From positions 1,312,001 to 1,376,000 of the forward strand of contig CAVUAK010000001.1 in the NCBI GenBank assembly GCA_963739455.1: a stretch of DNA of 64,000 nucleotides. Reading direction: 5' to 3'. Position numbers and translations under genes: made by a program. Positions 49,345-53,573 of this stretch are shown one piece after another. This DNA comes from an uncultured Gemmatimonadales bacterium (lineage in GTDB: Bacteria; Gemmatimonadota; Gemmatimonadetes; Gemmatimonadales; GWC2-71-9). Position 1 is the first letter of the stretch, and each line of letters begins with the position of its first letter. The notes beneath the pieces are model-generated. The model had not been told where the DNA came from and made no database searches. It was given only the letters and a program-made list of their open reading frames with translations.

Positions 49345-49373
49345 TTGCGCGATTTCCCGATAACCTGTACTGT
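49345..49373 (+). promoter_or_regulatory. Sigma70-type promoter of the tRNA/rtcB operon
   Basis: TTGCGC-17 nt-TACTGT. Confidence 0.55.
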
Positions 49374-49389
49374 GTCTGCGCTTGACCGG

Positions 49390-49508
49390 GAGTCGCGTCC
49401 CAGAGGTCGTCGATCCAGAGCAGTGCCGCACGGCACCAGCAGGGTCGGCTATGGTGGCTGAGCCTGGCTCTCCCCCTACGACCACCGAGACGCGGCTCTT
49501 TTTGTTTT
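49390..49508 (+). ncRNA. Structured Y-shaped RNA (candidate), ending in a U-tract
   Basis: Nested pairings GAGTCGCGTC/GACGCGGCTC, GGTCGT/ACGACC, AGAGC/GCTCT, plus two hairpins (GTGCC-GCAC-GGCAC; CAGG-G-TCGGCTA/TGGCTGA-G-CCTG), followed by TTTTTGTTTT. Confidence 0.5.
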
Positions 49509-49545
49509 CCGTCGATTGACGATTTCCTGATGTAAGGAGTGCACT

Positions 49546-49725
49546 GTGTCCGCGATGTCACGCAGGTCCATCCCAGCACGACCCTGCCGCTTGCATGGGG
49601 CAAAGGTGCGCACGGTCGCGCTCGCGACGGTGAAGGGGGACGTGTATGCGGACCGGCGAGCCTTGGTCGAGGGCGGTCGTGGAATTGATGCGATGCAGGT
49701 GGGGAGCGTGAACCGGGGGCCATAA
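49546..49725 (+). CDS. Leader peptide (59 aa) ending RGP-stop
   Basis: RBS TAAGGAG 6 nt before GTG; MSAMSRRSIPARPCRLHGAKVRTVALATVKGDVYADRRALVEGGRGIDAMQVGSVNRGP*; contains the antiterminator strand. Confidence 0.65.
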   Translation: MSAMSRRSIPARPCRLHGAKVRTVALATVKGDVYADRRALVEGGRGIDAMQVGSVNRGP

Positions 49726-49760
49726 GCGGCCTGGGTTCGGCTCCATCGGGCGAGAGGATC

Positions 49761-49802
49761 GCCCCACCTGCGCAGAAGATGCCGGGTGGGGCTTTTTGTT
49801 TT
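49761..49802 (+). terminator. Intrinsic terminator / attenuator
   Basis: GCCCCACCTG-C-GCA-GAAGA-TGC-CGGGTGGGGC followed by TTTTTGTTTT. Confidence 0.85.
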
Positions 49803-49818
49803 CGGGAAGAGGAGTTTC

Positions 49819-49830
49819 GCTCTTTGACAA
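49819..49830 (+). promoter_or_regulatory. boxA-like antitermination element
   Basis: GCTCTTTGACAA resembles rrn boxA (TGCTCTTTAACA); lies between the attenuator and the stable-RNA genes. Confidence 0.6.
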
Positions 49831-49849
49831 CCGAAGGATGCGATGAAAA

Positions 49850-49913
49850 GACGTGATGACGTGAAGACGTGATGACGTGATGACGTGATGACGTGATGAC
49901 GTGATGACGTGAA
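49850..49913 (+). repeat. Tandem octamer (GACGTGAW)x8
   Basis: Eight consecutive GACGTGAT/GACGTGAA units; the same unit recurs at 50088-50103 and 50542-50573. Confidence 0.95.
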
Positions 49914-49920
49914 GGAACTG

Positions 49921-50006
49921 CAGGCTGTGGCCGACGCGCGGATGGCGTTCTCATGCGAGACCGCGACTCCCGGATGGGGCGTCATTCGTTCGTCGTGCCA
50001 TTTCCT
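49921..50006 (+). ncRNA. Second Y-shaped structured RNA (Y-RNA-like candidate)
   Basis: Long stem TGGC-CGACG-C-GCGGATGGCG / CGTCATTCGT-T-CGTCG-T-GCCA enclosing two hairpins (TCTC-ATGC-GAGA; CTCC-CGGAT-GGGG). Confidence 0.45.
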
Positions 50007-50078
50007 GAAGGCGTTGCGCAATGGGAGCGCGCCCGACTGTCTCTCGGGAGGGTGCGGGTTCGAATCCCGTCGGCTTCG
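50007..50078 (+). tRNA. tRNA-Asp(GTC), atypical, no encoded CCA
   Basis: Acceptor GAAGGCG/CGGCTTC (one G.G), D GCGC/GCGC, anticodon arm CCCGA-CTGTCTC-TCGGG, T arm GCGGG-TTCGAAT-CCCGT, G73. Confidence 0.8.
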
Positions 50079-50112
50079 TTGGTGCCGGACGTGAGGACGT
50101 GAGGGGTTATCC

Positions 50113-50185
50113 CAGGTGCGTAGCTCACTCGGCAGAGCGCGGGGATGTGGCCCCCGAGGAGGTGGTTCGAATCCGCCCCACCTGA
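50113..50185 (+). tRNA. tRNA-His(GTG)-like, atypical acceptor
   Basis: D GCTC/GAGC, anticodon arm CGGGG-ATGTGGC-CCCCG, T arm GGTGG-TTCGAAT-CCGCC; acceptor CAGGTG(C)G/CCACCTG needs a bulge; no G-1/C73. Confidence 0.7.
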
Positions 50186-50191
50186 TGTCAA

Positions 50192-50266
50192 CCGCCCGTA
50201 GCTGAGGCTGGGTCAAGCGCCCGTCTGATACACGGGAGCACGGAGGTTCGATTCCTCCCGGGCGGA
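50192..50266 (+). tRNA. tRNA-Ile(GAT), no encoded CCA
   Basis: Acceptor CCGCCCG/CGGGCGG, anticodon arm CCCGT-CTGATAC-ACGGG, T arm GGAGG-TTCGATT-CCTCC, A73. Confidence 0.85.
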
Positions 50267-50277
50267 CTGCAGCACAA

Positions 50278-50350
50278 TCCTCGTAAGCATTGACGCGTGA
50301 TGCAGCGGGCTCTTAACCCGCAGAGCGGGGTTCGACTCCCCGACGGGGGA
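50278..50350 (+). tRNA. tRNA-Lys(CTT), atypical (A8)
   Basis: Acceptor TCCTCGT/ACGGGGG, D GCAT/ATGC, anticodon arm GCGGG-CTCTTAA-CCCGC, T arm CGGGG-TTCGACT-CCCCG, A73. Confidence 0.85.
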
Positions 50351-50353
50351 CTT

Positions 50354-50425
50354 GCTCCAGTGGCCGAGCGGCCGAGGCACCAGCCTTCCAAGCTGTGGAC
50401 GGGGGTTCGATTCCCTCCTGGAGCT
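50354..50425 (+). tRNA. tRNA-Gly(TCC)
   Basis: Acceptor GCTCCAG/CTGGAGC, anticodon arm CAGC-CTTCCAA-GCTG, T arm GGGGG-TTCGATT-CCCTC, U73. Confidence 0.88.
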
Positions 50426-50462
50426 TTGAACTGCGGGGGACAGGGAACAGGGAACAGGAAAC

Positions 50463-50534
50463 GCGCGGATAGCTCAGCGGGAGAGCGCCGGTCTCACATA
50501 CCGGAAGGCGCTGGTTCAATCCCAGCTCCGCGTA
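50463..50534 (+). tRNA. tRNA-Val(CAC)
   Basis: Acceptor GCGCGGA/TCCGCGT, D GCTC/GAGC, anticodon arm CCGGT-CTCACAT-ACCGG, T arm GCTGG-TTCAATC-CCAGC, A73. Confidence 0.88.
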
Positions 50535-50541
50535 TCGTCAT

Positions 50542-50573
50542 GACGTGAAGACGTGAGGACGTGAAGACGTGAG
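50542..50573 (+). repeat. Tandem octamer (GACGTGAR)x4
   Basis: GACGTGAA GACGTGAG GACGTGAA GACGTGAG between tRNA-Val and rtcB. Confidence 0.9.
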
Positions 50574-50593
50574 GAAACCGAAAGGAGGGTCAG

Positions 50594-51820
50594 GTGAAGA
50601 TCTTTGGAACGCACGACGACGAACACGCGGGCCCAGCTCGCCACAGGTGGCGGAGCGGGCCCGGAAGGTGGCGCTGATGGCCGACGGTCACGTGGGCTAC
50701 GTGATGCCGATCGGTGGAGTGGCGGCCTACGACAACGCGGTCTCGGTGGTGGGAGTGGGGTTCGATATCGCCTGCGGCAACGCCGCGATCCGGACCGACC
50801 TGACGCTGGCCGACCTGGGCGACACCGGTGACGCAGACCGCTCGAGCCTGACGAATCTGGCCGACGAGATCGCCGACACGGTGAGCTTCGGCGTCGGCCG
50901 GAAGAACCGGGCCGACGATGCGCCGACCGATCGATCCGCTGTTCGAGGACGCCGCGTGGGACGCCGTGCCGGCCAAGCATCGCCAGGCGCTCAGGACCAA
51001 GGCGCGCCAGCAGCTCGGCACGGTGGGAAGCGGCAACCACTACGTGGACGTCTTCGCCGACGAGGCGGGAGCGCTGTGGGTCGGCGTGCACTTCGGAAGC
51101 CGGGGATTCGGTCACACCGTCGCCTCGAACTTCCTGGCGCTGAGCCAGGGCAAGGCAAGTGGGGCGATCGGGCGCCCGAGGTCGAGGTGCTGCTGTCGCT
51201 CGACCAGCCGCTGGGTCACGACTACTGGGCCCTGATGGAGCTGGCGGGTCGCTACGCCTACGCCGGCCGGGAGTGGGTGGCCCGGAAGGTGGTCTCGATC
51301 CTCGGCGGGCGGGAGCTGGAGCTGGTGCACAACCATCACAACTTCGCCTGGAAGGAGCAGCACGAGGGCGAGGAGCTGGTGGTGGTGCGGAAGGGAGCGA
51401 CGCCGGCGTTCCCGGGTCAGCTCGGCTTCATCGGCGGATCGATGGGTGACGATGCGGTGATCGTGCGGGGCGCCGACGTCAGGAGATGCAGCGGTCGCCG
51501 AGACGCAGCGAGAGGCGCTCTACTCGACGGTGCACGGGGCCGGGCGAGTGATGAGCCGGACCGCCGCGGCCGGCAAGCGGAACCGGAAGACCGGGGAGAT
51601 CCTGACGCCGGGACGGGTCACGCCCGAGATGATGAAGGGCTGGATCGCGGAGAAGGGTGTGGTACTGCGGGGCGGAGGGCTCGACGAGAGCCCGCAGGTC
51701 TACCGCCGGCTGCCGGACGTCCTGGCGGCGCAGGGCGACACCATCGAGGTCCTGCACACGCTCCGGCCGCTCATCGTGGTCATGGCTGGAGCGAATGAGT
51801 TCGATCCGTACAAGGACTGA
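50594..51820 (+). CDS. rtcB: RtcB family RNA 3'-phosphate/5'-OH ligase; about 5 frameshifts (near 50621, 50643, 50933, 51155, 51483)
   Basis: RBS AAGGAGG + GTG; stitched frames give MADGHVGYVMPIGG, VGFDIACGN, GTVGSGNHY, HFGSRGFG, HNHHN, RKGATP, GSMG, HGAGRVMSR, DESPQVYR. Confidence 0.9.
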
Positions 51821-51936
51821 ACAGCGTTAGGAGGAACTGCAGGAGCATAAGGAGGAACTGCGACAGCGGGTGCTGCGTGGGCCGTCCGCAGTTGCTGTTC
51901 CTCCTCACGTTCTTCTGTTCCTCCTCACGCTGTTCA
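51818..51936. repeat. Long imperfect inverted repeat (arms of about 50 nt built from 20-21-mer units)
   Basis: TGAACAGCGTTAGGAGGAACTGCAGGAGCATAAGGAGGAACTGCGACAGCGG vs CCGCAGTTGCTGTTCCTCCTCACGTTCTTCTGTTCCTCCTCACGCTGTTCA. Confidence 0.85.
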
Positions 51937-51940
51937 TCAC

Positions 51941-52015
51941 TGCTCCGTGGCCGAACGGATTCAAGGCACCCGGCTTCGACCCGGGAGATTGAGGGTTCGA
52001 CTCCCTCCGGGGCAT
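51941..52015 (+). tRNA. tRNA-Arg(TCG)
   Basis: Acceptor TGCTCCG/CGGGGCA, anticodon arm CCCGG-CTTCGAC-CCGGG, T arm GAGGG-TTCGACT-CCCTC; no CCA. Confidence 0.82.
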
Positions 52016-52076
52016 TCTGTCCATCGCATCCATCGGTTGACACACGGACACTCATGCAGGTGGAAGGGAGGGGACC

Positions 52077-52578
52077 ATGTTGCTGTGCCTGGTATACAAC
52101 ACGACCGGAGAGCCGATCGAGCTCGTGCCGTCGCTCATGGGCCTCGTGCTTCACCTGCGGGGCAAGGCGGTGATCCTGGAGACGGTGCCGGGGCGGTTCG
52201 CGCGAAGCCCGCGACTCAGTCTTCCCGCTGCCGGCAAGCGTAGTGCTGCGACAGCACCGGCGAATCGGGTCACGCGTGGCGGCCCTGACCAACGAGCACC
52301 TGTTCCTGCGGGACGGGCACCGGTGCGCGTACTGCGGGCGGCATCGCCGGGAGCTTGGTGCACGGGAGCGACTGACCCGTGACCACCTGGTGCCGCGGTC
52401 AAAGGGAGGAGCCGACACCTGGCTCAACGTGGTAACCGCATGCAGTTCGTGCAATCACGAGAAGAACGACAAGCTACTGAAGGATGCGGGCCGGAAGCCA
52501 CGGGTGGATCCGTGGGAGCCTTCGCGAGGCGAGCTGGTGACGCGACGGCTGTCGGCTCGACAGGCCACAGTGGCATGA
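52077..52578 (+). CDS. HNH endonuclease (McrA/HNH_5-like); one frameshift near 52235
   Basis: RBS GGAGG; N-terminal CLVYNTTGEPIELV; second frame LFLRDGHRCAYCG...LTRDHLVPRSKGGADTWLNVVTACSSCNHEKND. Confidence 0.88.
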
Positions 52579-52590
52579 AAGGAGACGACA

Positions 52591-52905
52591 ATGACAAGCG
52601 CCCGAACAAAGCGAGAGGAGGGATCGGCGGAGATCACGGCAGGCAGCTACTTCGTGGTTACGGGCGCGCACTTCTCGGCCTGGGTGAGCACGGAGATGGC
52701 CCGCCACATCGAGGCTTGCCTCGACGCGACGCCGCGTCCGGAGTGGATCGCGTTCGTCGACCTCAGCGGAGCACGCATCCGCCTCCGAAGCGGGCAGATC
52801 CAGTCGATCTGCCAGAGCACGGTGGAGCAGCGCCAGGTGTATCGTGACTTGTGGCGCGCGCTGCAGCAGGAGAAGCAGGCCGATCGTCGGCCCGACGAAT
52901 ACTGA
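52591..52905 (+). CDS. Hypothetical protein (104 aa), likely last gene of the tRNA/rtcB operon
   Basis: RBS AAAGGAG; 12 nt after the HNH stop. Confidence 0.7.
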   Translation: MTSARTKREEGSAEITAGSYFVVTGAHFSAWVSTEMARHIEACLDATPRPEWIAFVDLSGARIRLRSGQIQSICQSTVEQRQVYRDLWRALQQEKQADRRPDEY

Positions 52906-53009: not shown

Positions 53010-53573
53010 ATGTCACGTACCGCTGCCCCATCCCGTCCCGCTCGCCGCTCCCAATCGCCCAACGGATCCGCGGCGGACAGCACCCGGCTTTACACGACCA
53101 AGAATGACCTGCCCCACGATACCCGGGTCCAGGTCGTCGAACTTCTCAGCCAGCGCCTGGCGGATGTGCTCGACCTGCAGTCCCATTGCAAGCAGGCGCA
53201 CTGGAACGTGAAGGGTCCTCACTTCATCGCGCTGCACAAGCTGTTCGATGAGATCGCGGAGGAGGTGGAGGACTACGTGGACGTCATCGCCGAGCGGATT
53301 GTGCAGCTGGGTGGCGTGGCAGAGGGCACGGTGCGGGCGGTGGCTGCGAAGTCGGCGCTGATCGACTATCCGCTGGCGCTCAGCAGCGGCGAGGAGCATG
53401 TCGCCGCGCTCTCCGATTCCCTGTCGCAGTTCGGGCGGACCGTGCGGATGGGCATTGAAGAGATGGGCGAACTGGAAGACGCCGACTCGGCGGACATCCT
53501 GACGGGGGTATCACGCGGCATCGACAAGTGGCTCTGGTTTGTCGAGGCACACCAGCAGGGGCGCAACGGCTAG
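53010..53573 (+). CDS. dps: DNA starvation/stationary-phase protection protein Dps
   Basis: LYTTKNDLP, KQAHWNVKGPHFIALHKLFDE, DVIAERIVQLGG, DKWLWFVEAH. Confidence 0.95.
   Translation: MSRTAAPSRPARRSQSPNGSAADSTRLYTTKNDLPHDTRVQVVELLSQRLADVLDLQSHCKQAHWNVKGPHFIALHKLFDEIAEEVEDYVDVIAERIVQLGGVAEGTVRAVAAKSALIDYPLALSSGEEHVAALSDSLSQFGRTVRMGIEEMGELEDADSADILTGVSRGIDKWLWFVEAHQQGRNG

Follow-up and report, generated by a model that had tools for sequence, protein, structure and literature searches.

The RNA-repair ligase gene rtcB and an array of tRNA genes lie in one candidate operon of an uncultured Gemmatimonadales bacterium, and comparison of its leader with those of relatives suggests, with a probability of about 0.7, that the operon would be controlled by whiB7-like, ribosome-sensing attenuation, that is, by the leader rather than by the regulators RtcR or TrcR. 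The locus occupies positions 49345..52905 on the + strand of the 64,000-nucleotide stretch analysed here (hereafter the window; G000:C1:1312001-1376000), part of a 3.6 Mb genome in four contigs (84% complete). A first-pass annotation had listed a promoter, two structured RNAs, a leader peptide with terminator and antiterminator, a boxA, repeats, seven tRNA genes, rtcB, an HNH endonuclease gene and an orphan open reading frame (ORF). All of these were found on the + strand in the order it gave, and ARAGORN and Rfam placed the seven tRNA genes where it had put them. Its statement that the window lacks integrase, RtcR, RtcA and Ro60 genes was upheld by profile searches. RtcR (PF06956), RtcA (PF01137) and Ro60 (TROVE) had no match in the whole 84%-complete genome, and the five phage-integrase matches in the genome all fell outside the window.

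The leader was surveyed using an exact pattern for its first hairpin, with the reversed pattern as a control. Within the order, 20 of 301 genomes contained the pattern, compared with 0 for the reversed control (two of the matches appear chance-like), and at least 80 leader loci were found among the 185,579 species genomes searched. Titles of the 80 listed loci corresponded to Gemmatimonadota lineages in 77 cases, to 'bacterium' in two and to an actinobacterium in one, in which the other elements were absent. This last match (L073) was left out of the terminator and leader-ORF statistics given below, which comprise 80 sequences (79 loci and the window). The sets of loci behind the different counts overlap, and the counts are not additive. 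Two unpublished genomes (G098, G222) enter only the tallies of the order-wide leader scan and of the phylum-wide T2 and RtcB samples, and no claim is based on their sequence. Searching 41 genomes at the DNA level recovered the block in G008, G009 and G006, and elsewhere rtcB alone or with the leader; the layout is thus conserved in relatives, the lack of which the first-pass annotation had named as grounds for rejecting its proposal. Occurrence was patchy, with differing flanks among congeners. No leader was found in viral contigs, and plasmids gave either no match or weak tRNA matches only. The structured RNAs T1, T2 and E3 (described below) have no Rfam model, and the window and 12 related loci gave only tRNA-related Rfam matches (E up to 0.1-1). 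No published description of the leader was found in the literature, where supplements or motif lists in subscription journals could hold these RNAs. What is new is a Gemmatimonadota-wide leader that also heads loci without a tRNA array; the gene content is not new.

The evidence for attenuation centres on a leader ORF of 59 aa (49546..49725, +; Shine-Dalgarno sequence AAGGAG at 49534) and the intrinsic terminator T2 behind it (49760..49802, +), which appears in the centroid fold and was found in 69 of the 80 sequences examined. An ORF of 40-98 codons with its stop 32-50 nt before T2 was present at 67 of these 69 loci, compared with 0, 2, 2, 1 and 0 of 69 in five neighbouring windows of equal width. 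The peptides share no common motif, and their codon census is rich in Ala, Gly and Arg, as is usual for GC-rich DNA. Alternative folds and class-wise covariation predict an antiterminator (49695..49770, +) in which GCAGGUGGGG pairs with the CCCCACCUGC arm of T2, the stop codon lying in the loop of its inner hairpin. The strand that would open T2 stands just before the stop and changes together with the T2 arm: CGCAGG accompanied CCUGCG in 17 of 33 cases (near variants TGCAGG, 10, and GGCAGG, 7), CACAGG accompanied CCUGUG in 12 of 15 and CGCGGG accompanied CCCGCG in 8 of 11, with cross-class matches of 0-1 except for CGCGGG (4 of 15). In the window, the attenuator region folds with a z score of -3.05 against shuffled sequences, and deleting the part covered by a terminating ribosome leaves T2 in the predicted fold. 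The leader therefore probably acts as a ribosome-sensing attenuator on this comparative evidence, and stop position and covariation together back the stalling-type leader ORF, terminator and antiterminator of the first-pass annotation.

A search for T2 alone recovered the module in 45 of 401 genomes of the phylum and 0 for the control. By itself it stands upstream of genes for MATE pumps at 8 loci and for DksA/TraR at 6; HPF and release-factor-family genes occur further downstream, once each or twice, as expected for a sensor of translation stress. The T2-type leader-ORF attenuators before MATE pumps (L126-L130, L149, L152 and L159) represent candidate antibiotic-inducible efflux loci in Gemmatimonadota. 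DksA/TraR-type genes were observed behind complete, H0-only or T2-only leaders at L088, L134, L135, L163, L164, L167 and L283; the DksA/TraR-type gene is followed by HPF at L134 and by a baeRF10 release-factor-family gene at L164.

Upstream of the ORF, transcription would begin at a sigma70-type promoter (TTGCGC-17 nt-TACTGT; 49345..49373, +), its start site being predicted. TTGACA or TTGCGC, a spacer of ~17 nt and TAnnnT occupy the same upstream place in nearly all leader loci inspected, and the sequence between the -35 element and the downstream element H0 varies freely among the promoter regions of relatives. A simple consensus scan of the window called no promoter and neither terminator; we make these calls because the elements are conserved across relatives, so that the promoter and terminators first annotated stand by conservation and not by consensus. 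H0 (49388..49401, +) is the invariant 5' strand, GGGAGUCGCGUCCC, of the terminator-like helix T1 (49388..49508, +; z = -3.65 against shuffles), which closes a variable insert and is followed by a U-rich tract. Before the 3' arm of T1 is made, H0 is predicted to form a hairpin of its own with a GGGA/UCCC stem and the loop GUCGCG. This hairpin (GGGA-GUCGCG-UCCC) was the minimum free energy fold of window fragments of 22-112 nt and had a median probability of 0.82 across 72 leaders. All 14 positions of H0 were identical in the 26 of 26 T2-found loci that also carry E3. At nine core positions of the T1 3' arm in 27 T2-found loci, we counted 212 Watson-Crick pairs, 30 G-U pairs and one mismatch, i.e. 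31 departures from perfect pairing at 243 positions, of which 30 were G-U, with the 5' strand unchanged. Since the 3' arm drifts by G-U pairing and the 5' strand is fixed, the helix appears to function as RNA and its 5' strand appears to be under a second constraint.

A candidate for this second constraint is E3 (49927..50001, +), a rod-shaped RNA defined by fold and conservation whose apical loop, (A/C)CGCGAC followed by UCCC, is complementary to H0. E3 was found in 71 of 79 loci and in the window, and three of the eight misses were cut contigs. Its median z score across loci was -3.67 (window copy, -4.14 against shuffles), and its loop bases were unpaired with probabilities of 0.67-0.97 compared with 0.16-0.21 in the flanks. 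The stems differ widely between loci and the loop ACGCGAC is kept; among 26 similar, hand-picked members, two-sided changes occurred at 15 of 28 pairs. A covariance model trained on 72 aligned E3 sequences contained no base pairs and was set aside. Complementarity between E3 and H0 spans 10-11 of 11 nt and is exposed in loops, at a chance expectation for CGCGACYCC of 0.007 per 330 nt. At 50 of the 54 T2 places, both elements occurred in 26 cases, neither in 20, H0 only in three and E3 only in one; several of the 'neither' class are chance hairpins and the E3-only locus is a cut contig. Two rtcB loci (L139, L140) have kept promoter and T2 and have cleanly lost both T1 and E3. Among metagenome Ro60 loci, 12 of 64 carried H0, all 12 also carried E3, and three more E3 copies lay on contigs cut upstream. 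H0 was altered in two of three loci without E3. Both elements were invariant in locus sets retrieved without using either, and the H0:E3 duplex was stronger than that of H0 with the T1 arm in 55 of 72 leaders. The first-pass annotation had missed this complementarity between its first and second structured RNAs, as it had the long-range stem described below. rRNA and tRNA were rejected as partners of H0: at most 6 nt were shared with the rRNA operon, and only two of 62 tRNA/tmRNA genes matched.

Behind E3 follow six tRNA genes (Asp-GUC, His-GUG, Ile-GAU, Lys-CUU, Gly-UCC and Val-CAC; 50006..50534, +) and, beyond rtcB, tRNA-Arg-UCG (51941..52015, +), the only gene with this anticodon in the ARAGORN listing of the genome. 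Each of the other six anticodons is also found on a housekeeping gene, to which the array copy is 51-74% identical, and the 3' CCA is encoded in none of the array tRNAs versus 13 of 54 other tRNA genes. The atypical, spare tRNAs first proposed are thus borne out as divergent spare isodecoders. Several relatives have 12-17 array tRNAs in a similar order, next to which the window copy is short; the commonest members of 18 arrays with at least five tRNAs were Asp-GUC, His-GUG, Gly-UCC and Leu-CAG. Recognition of tRNAs by their synthetases follows identity rules in which position 37 and the G-1/C73 pair carry weight. The array tRNA-Asp and tRNA-His (window 50006-50185) have, respectively, a pyrimidine at 37 and an unusual acceptor end seemingly without G-1/C73, both shared with relatives; tRNA-Asp of the window also has a mismatch in its acceptor stem.

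The array is preceded by a boxA (GCTCTTTGACAA; 49819..49830, +), a 12-mer that is identical upstream of the 16S and 23S genes of this genome. boxA was present at 16 of the 20 array-bearing leader loci and at 8 of the 51 that lack an array. It runs straight into the 5' strand (49827..49845, +) of an inverted repeat whose 3' strand (52022..52039, +) lies just after tRNA-Arg, forming a predicted long-range stem around the tRNA block. A partner of 17-23 bp after the last tRNA was found in 11 of 16 loci with boxA and array, 2-42 nt away in nine, and the stem sequences vary between loci and remain complementary. The rrn operon of this genome likewise has boxA and then one strand of a long-range stem; here the same arrangement brackets a tRNA array (and rtcB in some loci) rather than rRNA. 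In rrn operons, boxA directs antitermination and RNase III cuts the stems, and by analogy we regard the stem here as a putative processing stem.

The remaining cargo comprises the short, ~400 aa type of rtcB (50594..51820, +; PF01139 in three frames), the HNH gene (52077..52578, +; PF01844/PF14279 domain at 52243-52578 in two frames) and the orphan ORF. Across the 80 listed leader loci, we found rtcB in 46, the orphan family in 32, Ro60 in 30, an array of at least three tRNAs in 19 and HNH in 12. rtcB or Ro60 occurred in 58 of the 80, and 12 had none of these cargoes, five of them with fewer than 1,600 bases downstream. All 12 HNH-bearing loci had an array of at least three tRNAs. The search proposed by the first-pass annotation, for rtcB, tRNA array and HNH together behind the leader, returned seven of the 80; Ro60 is present in six of the seven, accompanied by Y-like RNAs in those checked, which disagrees with its 'distinct compact system' lacking Ro60. 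In G008 the order is 14 tRNAs, intact rtcB and HNH, tRNA-like Y RNA candidates and Ro60, and in G009 it is 12 tRNAs, HNH, Y-like RNAs, Ro60 and rtcB. Compared with G008, the window copy lacks seven tRNAs and Ro60/Y RNAs and is therefore a shortened form of the locus, with the orphan ORF at the usual place of Ro60. In a contig from another strain, tRNA-Asp and tRNA-His are separated by 352 additional bases, and HNH and dps by 1,970. Before Ro60, relatives show tRNA-model matches of 117-126 nt and YrlA matches of 32-33 bits, below the gathering score of 69. Tandem Y-RNA-like units lie before Ro60 at L017 (5360-5700, reverse orientation; a GNCGAAG motif is visible in this region) and L049 (5864-6265), likewise below the YrlA threshold. 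A phylum sample contained two RtcB types, scoring ~580 and ~210 bits on PF01139, and the window RtcB belongs to the short type.

Taken together, these elements suggest the following scheme. A ribosome reaching the stop of the leader ORF would melt the antiterminator and T2 would terminate; a stalled or damaged ribosome, or a missing tRNA, would allow the antiterminator to form and the operon to be read, largely independently of peptide sequence. boxA may then recruit the rrn antitermination complex, and an RNase III-type cut at the stem would release the untranslated tRNA block and E3. The spare isodecoders could refill the tRNA pool or act as decoys, and RtcB, joined in most relatives by Ro60 and Y RNAs, would repair or clear cut RNA. 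Kissing contacts between loops are known from antisense RNAs. In the last step, which is the least certain and falls somewhat short of even odds, the E3 loop would kiss the loop that H0 transiently forms in newly made transcripts and block T1, giving self-amplification. E3 is made only past both terminators and therefore could not rescue its own transcript; acting on later ones, it would constitute positive feedback. Whether the whole then amounts to a protein-free, two-stage switch, in which stalling opens T2 and E3 blocks T1 in trans as a natural small transcription activating RNA (STAR) encoded in its own transcript, is a tentative proposal that we rate below an even chance. E3 might also act on other leaders in the genome, perhaps helped by the orphan protein, which is weakly Sm-like, and the switch would then run a phylum-wide regulon of RNA repair and spare tRNAs.

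Several observations weigh against this scheme. The covariation classes are not independent and track a small number of clades; the U tracts behind T1 and T2 are often interrupted, and the consensus scan missed both terminators. The stem duplex energy is no better than that of GC-rich controls, only its position being informative, and the partner is missing in five of the 16 loci with boxA and array (three on short contigs). Leaders were absent from 26 of 31 short-type rtcB loci retrieved without reference to the leader, and two of the 31 (L325, L334) have an E3-like hairpin without H0. No compensatory H0/E3 variant was found in the T2 set (50 of 54 places), the Ro60 set (64 of 80 loci with upstream DNA, de novo three-copy scan) or the 31 short-type rtcB loci, and in Longimicrobium the E3 base facing the A of H0 is a C, leaving 9-10 of 11 nt matched. 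Some array tRNAs may not be charged, given the pyrimidine at 37 of tRNA-Asp and the seemingly missing G-1/C73 of tRNA-His. To these are added the reading frames: counted against the closest relative, G008 (~90% identical; rtcB intact at 403 aa, HNH intact at 165 aa), rtcB carries five frameshifting insertions and HNH one, and six insertions in 1.7 kb compare with 0.7 expected at a uniform rate (P = 0.0008 for at least 5). This excess points to either a bad patch of the assembly or real decay, and the lost tRNAs and lost Ro60 make the latter conceivable in the window strain. On that account the locus would be what remains of a mobile tRNA array undergoing decay, with rtcB and HNH as true pseudogenes, and the leader would be irrelevant here and real as a family; the acceptor-stem mismatch of tRNA-Asp, the similarly eroded copy in G006, and the patchy distribution and differing flanks among congeners fit it. 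The background of the assembly speaks otherwise. A comparison of 99 other genes (117,551 bases aligned; 153 G008 genes probed) gave 48 frameshift events in 28 genes, clustered at up to six per gene, and 43 of the 48 were +1 or +2 insertions, as were all six in rtcB and HNH; other patches of the assembly have 4-6 frameshifts per gene. There is no stop codon inside the RtcB matches, and leader, stems and orphan ORF are intact. In contigs of four runs, from other strains, the inserted bases were missing in 2-4 of the four runs per site. With no integrase in the window and no viral or plasmid match to the leader, we consider decay improbable and the frameshifts probably assembly errors; pseudogenisation, which the first-pass annotation had named as a possible refutation, is the less likely cause. 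Over the whole assembly, frameshifting insertions average ~0.4 per kb of coding sequence and come in patches, so pseudogene calls in this genome need care.

Other explanations keep the attenuator and read the E3-H0 match differently. H0 and E3 share a transcript in every case, ~350-770 nt apart, and could pair in cis past both terminators, looping the leader for stability, processing or translation with no feedback in trans. The E3-less H0 leaders of G118 and G178, for which no E3-bearing leader was found elsewhere in the genome, suit this idea, in contrast to G163, which has one E3-less and one complete leader. Pairing in cis would also leave unexplained the long insert of T1, the transient H0 hairpin and the placing of the motif in a loop on a rod of 35-45 bp. 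A loop on a long rod is the usual shape of diffusible antisense RNAs, such as those of plasmids. We regard the cis arrangement as rather unlikely, and somewhat less so than recognition by a protein, possibly the orphan or Ro60, that would bind the CGCGAC motif or the H0 hairpin, with E3 as decoy or loading site and the complementarity as a by-product. Phylum-wide invariance with no compensatory change is what recognition by a protein typically produces, and the weakly Sm/Hfq-like orphan family occurs in 32 of the 80 listed loci, in a genome without an Hfq match. However, the same-sense copy of the motif in the T1 3' arm changes only within G-U pairing, which fits RNA pairing, the orphan or Ro60 is missing from many leader loci, and the fold match is non-significant. 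Least probable by far is that T1 senses damaged tRNA, 3' fragments with the T-arm sequence CGACUCCC pairing with GGGAGUCG to antiterminate and E3 mimicking them. CGACUCCC does form the T-arm sequence of two array members, tRNA-Lys and tRNA-Arg, and such sensing would fit an RNA-repair cargo; yet it is carried by only two of 62 tRNA/tmRNA genes, neither of them housekeeping, the conserved loop core CGCG is unlike a T loop, and the rRNA operon shares no more than 6 nt.

Like the cyanobacterial L-arrays (PMC8421152), the window family has redundant, divergent isodecoders, patchy occurrence and HNH, rtcB or dps neighbours; the window array itself is a co-oriented tRNA cluster with redundant isodecoders, patchy presence and an HNH neighbour. 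The gene content, which the first-pass annotation took to be undescribed, is thus already represented there, HNH, rtcB and dpsA being known beside L-arrays (PMC8421152). In Anabaena PCC 7120, the L-array, HNH and rtcB are induced by chloramphenicol, 23 of the 26 tRNAs in the array are charged, and stress leads to cleavage of some (PMC8421152), so that refill and decoy roles both have precedent. Control there involves direct repeats in the promoter (PMC8421152), tandem 9-nt units over the -10 element and the transcription start, and the repressor TrcR (PMC10272220), in contrast to the leader ORF, two terminators, boxA and E3 found here; in addition, rtcB lies inside the operon and Ro60 and Y RNAs are usual partners in the window family. 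The Salmonella rsr-yrlBA-rtcBA locus (PMC7790460; Y RNAs, PMC4201824) combines Ro60, tRNA-like Y RNAs and RtcB, as do relatives of the window, and is controlled by RtcR/sigma54, whereas here a sigma70-type promoter is predicted to act with attenuation, RtcR and RtcA have no match, and a tRNA array and HNH are added. The closest analogue of the leader is the upstream-ORF attenuator of whiB7/wblC in Actinomycetota, in which a long, variable leader ORF overlaps the antiterminator as it does here, stalling leads to read-through, drug-efflux genes also stand behind the module, and there is positive feedback (bioRxiv 10.1101/2023.06.02.543512). That feedback is exerted by WhiB7 protein at the promoter; here there is no linked regulator gene, the candidate element is an RNA, and T1 is an extra upstream terminator. 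No WhiB protein was among the cargo families scanned, and the leader is an analogue of whiB7, not a homologue. In synthetic STARs (PMC5648800), an RNA on the 5' half of a terminator prevents termination, which is the geometry of E3, H0 and T1; E3 would differ in being natural, encoded downstream in the activated transcript and seeded by a loop-loop contact. The cargo adds a member to the known tRNA-array and Ro60-RtcB systems; the control region represents a new variant, and its E3/H0 element is possibly categorically new.

The orphan ORF (52591..52905, +; 104 aa) had no Pfam, NCBIfam or PDB sequence match, and Atlas gave only unnamed, mostly Gemmatimonadota clusters. AlphaFold predicts a small barrel (predicted local distance difference test 86.5) with non-significant likeness to Rv3208A (Z 5.3, root mean square deviation 3.1, 57 aligned) and Hfq (Z 3.6-3.7). 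Foldseek found no match at E 0.001 (best E 0.044), and an Sm-like barrel is a weak lead only. A second small conserved ORF (MLDIRLLLLETP...), with no Pfam match, lies between E3 and the orphan gene at L046, L069, L158 and L139. Directly after the locus is a Dps/ferritin gene (window 53010-53573), internally deleted at the same position in G008. It was seen in only one of the 80 listed loci and is therefore probably a mere neighbour; dpsA is co-regulated with the Anabaena array (PMC8421152). The gene for the RNA-repair methyltransferase Hen1 lies downstream of the leader at L051, L078 and L095, putting a second RNA repair system under what would be the same control.

The repeats listed among the operon components by the first-pass annotation proved to be genome-wide repeats dispersed in spacers and were ruled out as parts of the system. 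The GACGTGAW octamer array (49850..49913, also 50542-50573; +) is one of 60 arrays of at least three units in the genome, and relatives are without the octamer at this place. The hairpin repeat (51818..51936; z = -9.2 against shuffles) occurs at ~13 loci with 74 core copies, and has many matches in relatives. Repeat families of this genome include GACGTGAW tandem octamers, AGGAGGAACWG-based hairpins and GGGAACA-type heptamer runs, often as inverted pairs.

The locus ties RNA repair and spare tRNAs to a candidate ribosome-sensing leader in an abundant, little-studied phylum, within a group of bacteria from soil and sediment, and adds three RNA elements without an Rfam model. It touches on two open questions: how RNA repair is induced in bacteria other than the RtcR-bearing proteobacteria, and what purpose long arrays of spare tRNAs serve. 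Across the phylum, the T2 module also marks other translation-stress genes, such as those for MATE pumps and DksA/TraR. Should E3 prove to act in trans on T1, it would provide a natural equivalent of the engineered STARs and an amplifier made of RNA only.

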